Below are positions 60,510-64,000 of a stretch of 64,000 nucleotides of DNA, one piece after another. The stretch spans positions 204,370 to 268,369 of the forward strand of contig JAXLQJ010000002.1 in NCBI GenBank assembly GCA_046331705.1. Direction: 5' to 3'. The notes beneath the pieces were generated by a model. It was not told where the DNA came from. It saw only the letters and a list, made by a program, of their open reading frames with translations, and made no database searches. Positions within the stretch are counted from its first letter, which is position 1; each line of letters starts with the position of its first letter. Source of the stretch: a bacterium (GTDB taxonomy: Bacteria; JADJOY01). Both the position numbers and the translations under genes were made by a program.

Positions 60510-60601
60510 GACGCCGCGCGCCGCTCAGCAGCGGCCACGGACTACCACGCGATCAACCCTGCGCGTCCCGGGGTGCCGTCTGCTGCAGCGCGTAGTTAAG
60601 G
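60510..60601 (-). mobile_element. Terminal attC site with degenerate R' box
   Basis: Minus strand CCTTAAC (contains toxin stop)-TACG-CGCTGCAGCAG...CTGCTGAGCG; GTTRRRY not present. Confidence 0.65.
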
Positions 60602-60931
60602 CCCGATGATTTCATTGAGGCCCTCAAGCACGAGACTGAGCTCCTCGGCGCTTGCTTCACCAAGGCGGCGGCCTATTCGCTCAGTCGACAACGTACGAAT
60701 CTGGCTGATCTTCACCCAAGAACGCTTTGGTAACGGTGCGTGGAGTTCCAAGGTGAGTGGATACGGTGCCCGCTGAGGCTGGGAGGTAAGGGCGAGGGCT
60801 ATTACCGTTCCAGAGCGATCGTTGAAGACATCATGGCTCAGGATCAGCACGGGACGTTCACCCGCCTGCTCCCGACCCCGTACGGGATCGAGTGACGCCC
60901 AGCGAATCTCGCCGCGACGGATTCGCGCCAA
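60596..60931 (-). CDS. mazF: Type II toxin, PemK/MazF family endoribonuclease
   Basis: RRGEIRWASLDPVRGREQAGERPVLILS, SQIRTLSTERI. Confidence 0.92.
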   Translation of the reverse strand: MARIRRGEIRWASLDPVRGREQAGERPVLILSHDVFNDRSGTVIALALTSQPQRAPYPLTLELHAPLPKRSWVKISQIRTLSTERIGRRLGEASAEELSLVLEGLNEIIGP

Positions 60932-61174
60932 TCAGTACTCCGGCCAGTCTGCGGCGTCGGCCGCGAGACCGGATTCCGCTAGGGCGCGCTCTTCCGCTAC
61001 GTCGAGAAGCCGGCAGGCATCCGCAAGGCGCGTTCGCCGAAGCCGCCTCAACGCCGCGGCGACGGCAGCCTCGATCGCGTGACTCCGGTTCGGGAACCGT
61101 CCGGCCTCGACCAGCGCGTCGAGCTCACCGAGCAAGTCCGACTCCACCGTGACGGCGACCTTAGTCTTCGGCAT
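60932..61174 (-). CDS. Ribbon-helix-helix antitoxin
   Basis: KTKVAVTV...ELDALV...FPNRSHAIE; GGAGG RBS; abuts toxin start. Confidence 0.9.
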   Translation of the reverse strand: MPKTKVAVTVESDLLGELDALVEAGRFPNRSHAIEAAVAAALRRLRRTRLADACRLLDVAEERALAESGLAADAADWPEY

Positions 61175-61187
61175 GGCTCCAACCTCC

Positions 61188-61208
61188 GGTATGACCATAC
61201 ATCATACC
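61188..61208. promoter_or_regulatory. TA operator palindrome GGTATGA-N7-TCATACC
   Basis: Perfect 7-bp inverted repeat just upstream of the antitoxin RBS, overlapping TATGAT/TATGGT -10-like hexamers. Confidence 0.8.
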
Positions 61209-61230
61209 GCAGCCAACTGCCAAATACTGG

Positions 61231-61257
61231 CCCTAACACCGCGCTCACCTGCGGCGC
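61231..61257 (-). mobile_element. Right half of an attC site (L'-R'), interrupted by IS110
   Basis: Minus strand CAGGTGAGCGCGGT-GTTAGGG immediately precedes the TA cassette; the matching left half is absent. Confidence 0.75.
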
Positions 61258-61292
61258 TGGTGCTGTCGAAAACCCCAACCGGAGGAAGCCCA

Positions 61293-62205
61293 ATGCGATT
61301 CTACACCGGCCAACACGACCACTACTGCGGCACCGATCTGCACGCGCGATCGATGTACCTCTGTGTCCTCGATCGCGCTGGCGAGGTCCGACTTCATCGG
61401 GACTTCCCGGCCAGCCCGGAGTCCTTCCTTCGCGCCGTCGCGCCCTTCCGCGAAGGGCTCGTCGTCGGAGCCGAGTGCATGTTCACCTGGTACTGGCTCG
61501 CCGACCGCTGCGCCGCCGAGAACATCCCGTTCGTGCTCGGCCACGCCCTCTACATGAAGGCGATCCACGGCGGGAAGAGCAAGAACGATCGCATCGACAG
61601 CCTCGAGACCGCCACGCTGCTGCGCGGCGGCGCCATAGCGCATGCCTACGTCTACCCGCCGAAGATGAGGGCGACGCGGGCCCTCCTTCGTCGACGGACG
61701 CGGATGGTACCCCGGCGCGCCGAGCTGATCGCCCACGTTCAGAACACCCACCACCCGTACAACCTCGCGGCGCCCGGGCCGCGGCTCGCGTACACCGGCA
61801 ATCACGAAGGCGTCCCGGAGCACTTCCGTGATCCGACGGTGCGCCGCAGCGTCGAGCTCGACCTCGAGCTGGCGCGGATCCTCGGTGAGCGCATTACCGA
61901 CCTCGAGCTTTACCTGGTGCGGCAAGCGAAGGAGCACGACCCGAACGCCTTCCATCTGCTGCGCTCGATTCCTGGCGTCGGCAAGATTCTCGCGCTCACG
62001 ATCCTCTACGAGGTCCACACGATCGAGCGCTTCCCGCGCGTGCAGGATTTCGCGTCGTATTGCCGGCTGGTGAAATGCAGTCGTGAGTCCGCGGGCAAGA
62101 TCCACGGCACCGGCGGCGCCAAGATCGGGAACGTTCACCTCAAGTGGGCCTACTCGGAAGCCGCAACGCTCTTCCTGCACGGCAACCCCGAAGGCCAGCG
62201 GCTAC
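61293..62205 (+). mobile_element. IS110-family transposase, apparently C-terminally truncated (ORF runs on to 62345 in unrelated sequence)
   Basis: GGAGG RBS; YCGTDLH, AECMFTWYWL, KNDRID (DEDD RuvC-like), SIPGVG, RESAG catalytic Ser region; resemblance ends after GNPEGQRL. Confidence 0.9.
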
Positions 62206-62293
62206 GGGGGGCCTTGATCGGGGTAGTGATCGTGGACTCCGGCTCATTGTTTGAATGGAGGAATGCCCGGGTTGATTCCTTTACACGAGGCAG

Positions 62294-62444
62294 GTCGAAC
62301 GACCTGCCGTTCAGCAGCCAACGCCAAGGTCGCGTACGAGCGTAACACGGCCGCGGGCCGCGGGTGCAGCCCGCGGCGTCGCGGCATGAGCCCAACTCCG
62401 AGCGGAAGCGCGTGGCGCTCGACTGCTGCAACGGCCGGTTGGGC
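62294..62444 (-). mobile_element. attC site (151 bp)
   Basis: Minus strand GCCCAAC-CGGC-CGTTGCAGC...GCTGAACG-GCAGGTC-GTTCGAC; extra base in L''; 7 bp after cassette stop. Confidence 0.8.
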
Positions 62445-62451
62445 AGCGCTT

Positions 62452-62757
62452 CTAGGGTGAGGTCTTGTCTTCGGCCTTGAGAAGCTCGACTGCTCGGTGG
62501 GTCACCATCTTCACGACGCGATCGTCGGTATTCAGAAGGCGTCCGACGAGCGACGGCCTCCGCCGGATCTCCTCCATGAGGAGCTTCGCATATGCGTCTT
62601 TGTCCTCCGACTTCCAGAGACCGCTCGCGTGATGGTGGAACACGTGGCACGCCTCGTTGAGGATCTTCGAGATGCGCGCGCTGTCCTCAGGGTCGGAGCC
62701 CAACTCGTAGGCGACATCCGTCCAGCCGTCATTCTTGGGGAGTTTCTCGTGCGCCAC
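62452..62757 (-). CDS. Integron cassette hypothetical protein (101 aa)
   Basis: Single ORF starting 7 bp after GTTGGGC and ending 7 bp before the next attC. Confidence 0.75.
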   Translation of the reverse strand: MAHEKLPKNDGWTDVAYELGSDPEDSARISKILNEACHVFHHHASGLWKSEDKDAYAKLLMEEIRRRPSLVGRLLNTDDRVVKMVTHRAVELLKAEDKTSP

Positions 62758-63286
62758 GCTGTCTGCCCAACGACCTGACGTTAACTGACACCCGCCGCTT
62801 GACGGACGGGGGCCTTATAGGTGTTAGGCCGCCCTTTCGCAGGTGGTCGCTCAAGATCGGCTGGCGCTCCCGGAACCACTCAGACGCGCGCGGCTCCCAC
62901 GGCCAAATGCCGTCGGTTGTAGGATAGATGATCTGAAGGACCTCGAAGTTTTTCCCGCCGTAGAGCCACTTGTCCCATCCGAGGTAGTCGTCGAAGTGGG
63001 CCGGCGTAACGACCTCGAACTGCACCCGGAAGCCTTCAAGGAAACCCTCGTGTCGAGTCCCTGGCGCGAAGCGCTCACCGGCTCGAACCCGACTGTTGTA
63101 CTCATTGACCACGAAGTGAGCGATCGTCTGCTTCAGTCCGATCACGATGACCTCAGGGACGCCGGAGGTCTTCTGCACGCCGACCGAGTAGGAGAAGGGG
63201 GGCCCCTCCTCGTCCTCGAGCACATGGATGACGTGACAGCCGTACTTCTCGATATCGTCGAGGGCTTTCTTCTCTCCGGCGTCCAT
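62729..63286 (-). CDS. DUF4262-like cassette protein
   Basis: IEKYGCHVIHV, PPFSYSVG, PEVIVIGL, LQIIYPTTDGIWPWE...QPIL; family name from recall. Confidence 0.82.
   Translation of the reverse strand: MDAGEKKALDDIEKYGCHVIHVLEDEEGPPFSYSVGVQKTSGVPEVIVIGLKQTIAHFVVNEYNSRVRAGERFAPGTRHEGFLEGFRVQFEVVTPAHFDDYLGWDKWLYGGKNFEVLQIIYPTTDGIWPWEPRASEWFRERQPILSDHLRKGGLTPIRPPSVKRRVSVNVRSLGRQRGARETPQE
62765..62829 (-). mobile_element. attC-like site with mismatched L boxes
   Basis: Minus strand GCCTAAC...central CCCG(T)CCG/CGGCGGG stem...GTTAACG-TCAGGTC-GTTGGGC. Confidence 0.65.
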
Positions 63287-63301
63287 GAGCGTCGCTTGTC
63301 G

Positions 63302-63363
63302 GCCTAACGCAGTACTAAGCGGCGGGCGCGCAGCGACCGCCCGCCTTCAGCACTCTGTTAGGC
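63302..63363 (-). mobile_element. attC site (62 bp)
   Basis: Minus strand GCCTAAC-AGA-GTGCTGAAG-GCGGGCG...CGCCCGC-CG-CTTAGTAC-TGC-GTTAGGC; next ATG 15 bp later. Confidence 0.88.
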
Positions 63364-63424
63364 CATGGTGCCACCGGAAAGCGGAGCCGGCCAGCTACAT
63401 GCGAAAGGCACGAGACGTCTGAAT

Positions 63425-63790
63425 TCACCACTCACGCAGTTCCCAGTCATCATCGCGGATCACCGCGCCGAGCTTACGCGTCAGTTCGCTCGCGACGCGA
63501 TGTGTGGCGTGGTCGTCGCTCTCAATGCCGGGGACCGCGTTGAACGTGACCGTGCCGTCGGACCTACGCCAAAACGACGCCGTCCATTCGCCCTCGATCA
63601 GTACTTCGGCGTCTCCTGGGGAGACGCCGACCTTGATGCGGCGACCGTCAGGCAGTGGAACGGTCGCGTCGCCTTCAATGATGCGAACCCCTGGCGTAGT
63701 GGCCACGGCCGCTACCCACTCCTCCATCGAGAAGCCCGATACCTCCTCATCCTGCTCGCGATGAAGATGGAACTCAGCTGGCAGGGGCAC
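63425..63790 (-). CDS. Integron cassette hypothetical protein (121 aa)
   Basis: Single ORF between GTTAGCC core (63808-63814) and attC 63302-63363; GAAGGGA RBS-like. Confidence 0.72.
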   Translation of the reverse strand: MPLPAEFHLHREQDEEVSGFSMEEWVAAVATTPGVRIIEGDATVPLPDGRRIKVGVSPGDAEVLIEGEWTASFWRRSDGTVTFNAVPGIESDDHATHRVASELTRKLGAVIRDDDWELREW

Positions 63791-63807
63791 TCCCTTCGTT
63801 CAGCCCG

Positions 63808-63814
63808 GGCTAAC
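63808..63814 (-). mobile_element. Isolated attC R' core (GTTAGCC) abutting a second IS110 end
   Basis: Exact GTTRRRY-like position 17 bp before the cassette start; rest of the attC not present in window. Confidence 0.55.
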
Positions 63815-63912
63815 CCAGATGGAATGAGAAGGCTGACCTCCCGATCACGAGATGTCGTAAACGATTCTCAAGGTTGGATCAACGGGCTCGAAGCCCAAAC
63901 AGGAGGTCAGCC

Positions 63913-64000
63913 ATGAGCGATAGTGCCACGAAGTCCTTCGGATCGGAAGCGCAGGCCGCCTCGCTTCCGCCCCTCACCGCCGGCCTCGACGTCGGCGACC
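63913..64000 (+). mobile_element. Probable second IS110-family transposase, N-terminus only
   Basis: AGGAGG RBS; MSDSATKSFGSEAQAASLPPLTAGLDVGD ends in the G-L-D-x-G-D first catalytic-Asp motif; only 29 codons visible. Confidence 0.6.

Follow-up and report, generated by a model that had tools for sequence, protein, structure and literature searches.

Insertion sequences (IS) of the IS1111-attC group, on which Tetu & Holmes 2008 and Post & Hall 2009 are reportedly the sources to cite, are the described systems closest to the two elements considered here. IS1111 elements possess subterminal inverted repeats of ~11-13 bp, extended outwards by 7 bp at the left end and by 3 bp at the right, and a non-coding region downstream of the transposase gene (PMC11187229; this and the other papers are cited from part of their text). 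Elements of this type target attC, ISKpn4 and ISPst6 being guided by a seekRNA, and the seekRNA systems described include ISEc11, ISPa11 and ISKpn4 (PMC11187229); bridge RNAs are located in the right end of IS1111 elements (PMC11208160). Members of the IS1111-attC group insert close to the 5' end of attC and in antisense to the transcription of the cassettes (PMC3001079). PMC11616780 discusses class 1 attC sites disrupted by ISPa21, and PMC11089894 environmental cassette arrays with IS1111-group transposases. The targeting of attC by seekRNA-guided elements of IS1111 type is, then, already published. The present locus is a bacterial stretch of 64,000 nt (hereafter the window; positions 204,370 to 268,369 of contig JAXLQJ010000002.1, that is, C2:204370-268369 in the numbering used here), whose final 3.5 kb are occupied by a small cassette array. 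This array has very probably been invaded by two unrelated RNA-guided insertion sequences of IS1111 type, IS-A and IS-B, each programmed for one end of attC. The case is set apart by the landing spot at the R' end, the presence of two lineages in one attC, and the footprints left in the array.

The assembly comprises 118 contigs and 8.17 Mb; its contigs are labelled C (C2, C54, C30 and so on), the loci of relatives are labelled L, and P0001 and P0002 denote the full-length transposases of IS-A and IS-B. Read on the plus strand, left-hand boxes ending in AAC are R' (3') cores and right-hand boxes beginning with GTT are R'' (5') cores. The cassettes run along the minus strand, a sense assigned because the Pfam-supported cassette open reading frames (ORFs; a PemK/MazF toxin, a ribbon-helix-helix (RHH) antitoxin and a DUF4262 protein) are all on that strand and because the stop codon of PemK falls within the GCCTTAAC box.

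IS-A at the 3' end of attC

IS-A is an intact element of 1631 bp (C2:268186-269816) that begins at position 63817 of the window and extends past its end. Its subterminal inverted repeats measure 11 bp and are followed outwards by 7 bp at the left tip and 3 bp at the right, and its right end is made up of a 395-nt non-coding region after the stop codon, the repeat AGCCTTCTCAT and a final GGA. The transposase P0001 has 379 amino acids (aa), its ORF running from 63913 to C2:269421, and scores of 77.3 bits for PF01548 and 73.2 bits for PF02371 place it in the IS110 family. Because the subterminal repeats, the 7-bp and 3-bp extensions and the downstream non-coding region match the features given in the cited part of PMC11187229, the element is assigned an IS1111 architecture.

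IS-A has its left end at the R' (3') end of an attC, separated by 2 nt from the AAC/GTT core, and runs antisense to the cassettes. Its left flank is GGGCTAAC-CC and its right flank, AGCTCAGCAGCGGCC, is an attC arm; the rest of the occupied site consists of the arm AGCTCAGCAGCGGCCCCGGACT (C2:269817-269838) and a second box, AGTTCGGC (C2:270143-270150). Three copies are present in the genome, on C2, C54 (41762-43383) and C30 (17301-18825), and each of the three is bounded by AAC-CC on one side and by the arm (A)GCTCAGC of a long attC on the other. The copies on C54 and C30 show 94% and 92% identity, with many small indels that reflect either decay or assembly error.

The same position recurs outside the genome. 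The IS-A stretch was found at half or more of the sampled words in 20 of the 24 metagenome runs listed, which come from 12 studies of sludge or wastewater type; the best-matching run may be the source sample itself. Contigs from four runs of four studies show zero differences over the element (L015:6181-7818) and diverge outside it. Two further flanks come from these contigs: on the left a fourth one, which ends in AAC, and on the right a third one, AGCTCACCTGCGGCC..., again an attC arm. Every copy occupies the identical base-pair position in the identical orientation, across four left and three right flanks. Variants reading GGA-AG-AGCTCAGC allow the site GAACCC-AG-AGCTCAGC to be reconstructed, with the spacing of the intact attC at C59:23822 (GAACCCAGAGCTAAGC). 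In one run a diverged relative of IS-A has other sequence directly left of AGATGG, which confirms the left boundary. The genome-wide number of matches to the 13-mer target at up to 2 mismatches (299) lies within the range of shuffled patterns (62-836) and is uninformative.

A candidate guide RNA that covaries with the target

Profile scans retrieved 160 loci related to IS-A at 45-55% identity, mostly from Acidobacteriota, Gemmatimonadota, Chloroflexota and metagenomes of soil or sediment, and the subterminal repeat was recovered in 125 of them. Their non-coding regions share a conserved layout, in which ...GGGTGACTGCG is followed by 8-10 variable nt and a stem-loop, then by CCG, 4-6 variable nt and AG-AT(G/T)GCAGCACC, and finally by GCACCGAGC, a hairpin and GAGTGCG(G/A)ATGGAAGC. 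When these regions are aligned, the first variable block corresponds, in reverse complement, to the right flank and the second repeats the left flank. The correspondence was scored in the 93 loci, among 113 examined, that have both anchor motifs: matches to the right flank averaged 7.48 of 9 positions and those to the left flank 4.31 of 6, as against 4.37 (maximum 4.83) and 2.46 (maximum 2.75) in 1000 shuffles of the pairings, which ignore kinship among loci. RNAalifold, applied to 35 sequences, gave 17 pairs that close two loops, 9 of them with compensatory changes. Over 20 kb spanning both elements, no Rfam match was obtained at E-values (E) up to 1.

In IS-A, the guide GACTGCG-AGCTGAGCT is the reverse complement of the right flank, AGCTGAGCT being that of AGCTCAGCT, and the guide CAACCC-AGATGG is made up of left flank, core and left end, with AACCC as the left half of the target. 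Read together, the two blocks spell out the core-box AAC, then the spacer and the beginning of the attC arm.

This agreement suggests that the non-coding region of IS-A would act as a two-loop seek/bridge RNA guiding recombination, with a predicted length of ~150 nt (L015:7516-7663). The element would then comprise a DEDD transposase and an RNA from its 3' non-coding region, one side of whose target loop would be complementary to AGCTCAGC, at the start of the attC arm, the other side repeating AACCC+AG, namely the core-box AAC together with the spacer and the core. Recombination would occur 2 nt in from the AAC/GTT core, at the R' end and in antisense, with the result that the crossover box is parted from the rest of the hairpin. 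Sites occupied by IS-A or IS-B would presumably no longer be recombinable.

IS-B at the opposite end of attC

A full copy of IS-B lies on C54 (43458-45082; 1625 bp), with the left end TTGACTCTATGAAGGCCCC and the right end ...CTTGACGGACGGGGGCCTTATAGGAG. Its transposase P0002 has 347 aa (57.0 and 61.6 bits for PF01548 and PF02371), the non-coding region after the stop codon measures ~500 nt (448-569 nt across the IS-B family), and the subterminal repeats are imperfect, CTATGAAGGCCCC and GGGGCCTTATAG differing by one indel. At this locus IS-B shares an attC with an IS-A copy and occupies its other end, the order being GTTCAAC-CC, IS-A, (AG)AGCTCAGC...CTGCTGCAGCGTC, IS-B and TTCGGC. In all four tip-bearing copies (C54, C2:270142, C10 and C23) the box directly after the right tip ...GGCCTTATAGGAG reads TTCGGC, TTGGAG or TTCGAC; it is R'' (5') in the cassette sense, to which IS-B is antisense.

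Relatives 46-65% identical to IS-B are carried by plasmids of Candidatus Manganitrophus, Vibrio campbellii, Alteromonas, Pseudoalteromonas and Catenovulum. Nine such loci were examined; they have the same end motifs as IS-B, and in eight the right tip is present and followed by (G)TTAGGY, TTCGGC or TTATGT, the neighbours being for the most part small ORFs of opposite orientation. Of the sites in gammaproteobacteria, three were reconstructed that fold as AAC...GTT hairpins of 96-113 nt, and the flank of the Vibrio relative, judged by eye, looks like the Vibrio cholerae repeat (VCR). Within the phylum of the host, IS-B relatives at E 1e-40 or better were absent from the other five of six genomes (2 genera, 1 family).

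As a separate observation, the 22-nt right tip of the IS-B relative on the Catenovulum plasmid (L188:3067-3110) is tandemly duplicated (ACCTCGGGGAGGCTCATATGTG, twice) before a GTTAGGT box.

The non-coding region of the IS-B family is conserved across phyla and carries a copy of the right tip, ATA(G/A/T)GTGTT; its NNAAC-TGG segment tracks the local box variants TTCG, TTGG, TTAT and TTAG. These features fit a guide RNA and are at most suggestive of one. The right tip of IS-B elements always ends against the (G)TT of an R'' box. Judging from these sequence comparisons, both IS-A and IS-B are probably RNA-guided.

Besides the disregard of kinship in the shuffles, several points weigh against this picture. 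Precise empty-site, excision or circle joints were absent from the metagenome contigs, where the joints listed are short-sided. The exact 13-mer target of IS-A, AACCCAGCTCAGC, occurs twice outside attC (C10:196309 and C71:28131), both times unoccupied; a match to the 13-mer may be insufficient for insertion, or these two places may simply not have been struck yet. Automated folding gave no attC hairpin for the Vibrio and Manganitrophus sites. The guide evidence for IS-B comes from ~10 sequences, few of them independent; in C23 and in one Manganitrophus copy the guide matches the box at only 4 of 6 positions; and the IS-B crossover is either a TT core or one in which the G of GTT belongs to the target. 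Finally, the 12-nt and 13-nt blocks by which a decayed right tip of IS-B is recognised in the window (62204-62246; see below) are in the correct order and have ~15 extra nt between them, a modest match.

Cassette arrays could, in principle, be no more than tolerant places where insertion sequences pile up, and this one is indeed full of broken elements, with no integrase gene on contig C2. Such untargeted accumulation is scarcely credible here, for IS-A copies keep one base-pair position and orientation despite their four left and three right flanks, their guide segments spell the attC site, and the IS-B right tip keeps its position from one phylum to another.

It is also unlikely that both elements are ordinary members of the published IS1111-attC clade (ISPst6, ISKpn4, ISPa21, ISPa25), with no separate lineage or landing site. 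IS-B does share the position and orientation of that group, near the 5' end of attC and antisense (PMC3001079), and its published members are, in the cited part of PMC11187229, as little as 46% identical to each other. IS-A, by contrast, is at the R' (3') end, and two transposases that are 25% identical to each other would hardly both fall within one tight clade. Among 72,556 plasmid records, no IS110-family gene exceeds 35.5% identity to P0001, the published group itself having been compared by description only. The plasmid search with P0002 matched 171 records; among the 85 of these whose labels were read, none is labelled IS4321, IS5075 or attC element, the nearest named label is the ISGsu4 family (33%, a label of the Prokaryotic Genome Annotation Pipeline, PGAP, on Paraburkholderia plasmids), and IS621-family genes were matched over the C-terminal half.

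The invasion by two lineages, each directed at one end of attC, agrees with much of the original prediction for the window, which had been made from its letters and ORFs. As claimed there, both ORFs encode IS110-family transposases (both match PF01548 and PF02371, and the one at 63913 continues to 379 aa), the elements run antisense to the cassettes, as the minus-strand ORFs with Pfam support indicate, and P0001 and P0002, 25% identical, represent two dissimilar lineages. Both elements sit in attC sites at different positions, R' for IS-A and R'' for the IS-B family, and both disrupt the array. The end of the second element (IS-A) had been put within a few bases of a GTTAGCC core, a distance that proves to be 2 nt, and the attC part expected beyond it is the arm and box found at C2:269817-269838 and C2:270143-270150. 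A fixed attC offset, which was to be looked for among homologues, is seen in the IS-A copies and the IS-B right tips; the targets of the ~50% identical relatives of IS-A vary widely.

Relatives of IS-A and their targets

Insertion targets differ greatly across the IS-A family. Some relatives insert 3-5 nt before GTTAGG (L104, L111, L121, L175), others 1 nt after YCTAAC or CCCAAC (L158, L161, L181), and others between attC arms (L123, L125, L126, L146). An AAC...GTT hairpin test on the sites did not discriminate, with 9 of 90 positive against 5 of 90 control windows inside transposase genes; L111, L125 and L126 are among those that passed this test, itself non-discriminating overall. In a quick maximum-likelihood tree (101 rows, SH-aLRT support, midpoint root) the three groups with attC motifs form separate clades (support 99, 89 and 98) and IS-A stands elsewhere on a long branch; the starred branches of the tree force at least two origins for the class with the box on the left.

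Protein relatives of P0001 at 79%, 65% and 57% identity exist; a single-protein scan of genome contigs gave no match, and the profile scans reached at most 55%. A relative that inserts beside a GTTAGGC box is at most 34.2% identical to plasmid-borne genes, and P0001 matches IS4321-family-labelled genes at 25.7% over 61% of its length.

It is possible, though on the whole doubtful, that attC has been reached many times independently by reprogramming of the guide RNA. At least four separate branches of the IS-A family would then have arrived at attC-type boxes (before GTTAGG, after YYNAAC, between the arms, and IS-A itself), in addition to the unrelated IS-B. IS-A would represent the class landing beside the crossover point at the R' end, and both classes could share one attC. 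The right tip of IS-B would supply the G that completes a GTTRRRY box, and a 26-nt IS-B footprint may have become part of an attC that can still be used (the site at 62765-62829).

A set of relatives in Acidobacteriaceae (loci L054-L103, for example L080:2353 and L091) comprises ~20 copies in a repeated hairpin of ~100 nt, xAACTGTCGAAAAC^AGGCGATTACACTCATTGA...TCAATGAGTGTAATGGCGATTT...CAACAGTT, two of the copies being 4 kb apart in L095/L096. This hairpin may be an acidobacterial attC or a repeat resembling repetitive extragenic palindromic (REP) sequences.

The window copy of IS-B and other scars

The copy of IS-B in the window is a remnant. Its ORF (61293-62345, plus strand) scores 36.4 bits for PF01548 and 62.4 bits for PF02371, the transposase being truncated after about residue 305, with the C-terminal ~43 codons gone. 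The left tip (first 46 bp), the subterminal repeat and the non-coding region are missing, and the copy is therefore immobile.

On its left, a join at ~61255 (GCGGC/GCTGGTG) puts the R' box and L' arm of a long-type attC against internal sequence of the IS-B left end; deletion has taken the attC centre and other arm as well as the first 46 bp of IS-B. The original prediction had noticed an orphan part of attC close before this first transposase, and the fragment 61230-61255 does end 38 bp before its ATG; the conclusion drawn from it, an entry near the central stem, does not stand. Because homology to IS-B covers only element positions 47-998, the junction is a deletion joint rather than an insertion point, and intact relatives adjoin the (G)TT core at the R'' end. 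A third insertion position near the central stem of attC is accordingly very improbable. In its favour, the attC arm ends exactly where IS-B homology begins; against it, the 46 bp missing from the window copy include the subterminal repeat that the full copy on C54 and a fragment at C54:29855 possess, other truncated copies (C23, C10 and C2:269839) meet attC or interior sequence at unrelated points, as is typical of deletions, and the decayed right tip of IS-B still adjoins a box-like sequence. The end points of these truncated copies (C23:85655, C10:50797 and C2:269839) are scattered as expected of deletions.

Two losses would account for the window copy, one deletion having taken the left tip together with the attC centre and another the end of the transposase gene with the guide region. 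The decayed tip and degenerate box at 62204-62246, aligned with four IS-B right tips, may with moderate support be the R'' side of the attC that IS-B first entered. Two further traces of IS-B are present in the array. The first is a 26-nt footprint (62796-62821) that matches the right tip exactly and was identified by alignment with the IS-B right ends of C54, C10, C23 and C2 and by BLAST matches to those ends. The second follows IS-A, where the attC arm stops after 22 nt and gives way to a right-end-only remnant of IS-B (C2:269839-270142) and then to AGTTCGGC; the metagenome contigs hold an undeleted form of this site.

The cassette array and its genome

The features of the array are collected in Table 1.

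Table 1. Features of the cassette array in the window (positions are those of the window)
Feature	Position	Strand	Details
Long-type attC closing the toxin-antitoxin cassette	60517..60613	(-)	nhmmer C2:264886-264982, E 1e-19, model positions 18-114
Toxin-antitoxin cassette	60596..61198	(-)	sets cassette sense
PemK/MazF-like toxin	60596-60931	(-)	PF02452, E 1.5e-29
RHH antitoxin	60932-61198	(-)	PF01402, E 2.9e-6
Long-type attC remnant	61230..61255	(-)	box GCCCTAAC (GTTAGGGC in cassette sense, R') and L' arm GCTCACCTGCGGC; matches intact attC C23:88653
IS-B remnant	61255..62206	(+)	element positions 47-998 of 1625; 82% identity to C54:43504-44455
Decayed IS-B right tip and degenerate core box	62204..62246	(+)	ACGGGGGGCCTT 62204-62215; GGACTCCGGCTCA 62234-62246; from alignment with four IS-B right tips
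Short-type attC, GCCCAAC...GTTGGGC, 55 nt	62390..62444	(-)	paired-box AAC...GTT hairpin, dG (folding free energy) -27.5 kcal/mol
DUF4262 cassette ORF	62729..63286	(-)	PF14081, E 6.6e-41
attC-like site with IS-B footprint	62765..62829	(-)	exact right-tip footprint CGCTTGACGGACGGGGGCCTTATAGG (62796-62821) beside box GTTAGGC (62823-62829)
Short-type attC, GCCTAAC...GTTAGGC, 62 nt	63302..63363	(-)	paired-box hairpin, dG -31.6 kcal/mol
121-aa cassette ORF without Pfam match	63425..63790	(-)	first gene past the R' box adjoining IS-A
R' core box of the IS-A-occupied attC, plus 2 nt (CC)	63808..63816	(-)	GGCTAAC on the plus strand (63808-63814), GTTAGCC in cassette sense
Left part of IS-A	63817..64000	(+)	7-bp extension AGATGGA, subterminal repeat ATGAGAAGGCT (63824-63834), transposase from 63913

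The commonest attC of the genome is a long type of ~100 nt, xGAAC-N5-GCTCAGCAGCGGCC...GGTGCCGTCTGCTGCAGC-N4-GTTGGGC, of which nhmmer found 21 copies; a first finder based on regular expressions was too strict and returned 5 sites genome-wide. In the site closing the toxin-antitoxin cassette, the R'' box GCCTTAAC and both arms are present, and no R' box is recognisable on reading the sequence. To its left the sequence resembles ordinary chromosome, and this site is probably the fixed end of the array.

Matches to an integron integrase above the TIGR02249 cut-off are confined to C59, C44 and C23, the contig C2 (352 kb) having none. With at least four attC sites or remnants in 3.5 kb and no integrase gene on C2, the array is a cluster of attC sites lacking an integron integrase (CALIN), a call made per contig in a 118-contig assembly where linkage of C2 to other contigs is possible. 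The integrase genes lie at C59:21710-22654, C44:3476-4420 and C23:90368-91282. The orientation of the attC sites on C59 (C59:23435-27082) and C23 (C23:84849-89654) implies cassettes downstream of intI and co-directional with it, an inverted-integrase layout rather than the usual divergent one.

Between the IS-B right tip and the attC at 62390, a cassette-sized interval (62244-62387) holds only a 47-aa ORF and an internal hairpin, GGCAGGTCGAACGACCTGCC, which resembles an attC arm. Elsewhere in the genome, C54:41700-45600 and C2:268150-270700 have IS-A, the right part of IS-B and the next cassette in common at 93-97% identity, with many indels of 1-3 nt and different cassettes on the left; the likeness could be due to a duplicated locus, a co-binned strain variant or assembly noise.

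Comparison with described systems

Integron cassette arrays are a main route of gene exchange, and elements that split attC can freeze or fuse cassettes. In the present case two unrelated lineages, both probably guided by RNA, are aimed at the two ends of one site, in a rarely sampled phylum and in sludge-type habitats. The findings involve no new mechanism; they suggest that reprogramming of the guide gives such elements easy and repeated access to attC. Since both the candidate guide and the target of IS-A can be read from comparative data, they make a natural pair for studying how IS1111-type RNAs read structured palindromic DNA.

In the plasmid searches no record bore the name ISPa21 or ISKpn4, and the candidate references that came up were set aside: a Pseudomonas aeruginosa match lies outside any integron, a Klebsiella match sits in an IS903-like terminal inverted repeat rather than in attC, and an Aeromonas match adjoins type III secretion genes and is irrelevant. 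The Klebsiella pneumoniae plasmid in question (L193:3803-5176) carries an IS1111-type element with 12-bp subterminal repeats, and a group II intron reverse transcriptase gene is found 2.5 kb away.

Group IIC-attC introns also insert near one end of attC and in antisense (PMC3001079, as far as the cited part goes); they are retroelements with a reverse transcriptase and a different mechanism, and none is present in the window. The ISGsu4 family is the nearest named label for IS-B-like transposases, yet it is only 33% identical to P0002. With the seekRNA and bridge RNA systems the elements share a non-coding region, the likely source of an RNA, downstream of the transposase gene, and relatives that appear retargeted by changes in the guide; the published RNAs differ from those proposed here, which are deduced from covariation, the guide layout being read from alignments.

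The closest likeness is to the IS1111-attC group, and it extends to the DEDD transposase, the subterminal repeats, the long 3' non-coding region (which holds the seekRNA in the published group) and site-specific, antisense insertion into attC. Both transposases are distant from their plasmid-borne relatives, and the host phylum is represented by 6 genomes in the collection. IS-B resembles the group in its R'' (5'-end) position as well as in its antisense orientation, whereas IS-A, which has that orientation in common with it, differs by its place at the R' (3') end, 2 nt from the core.

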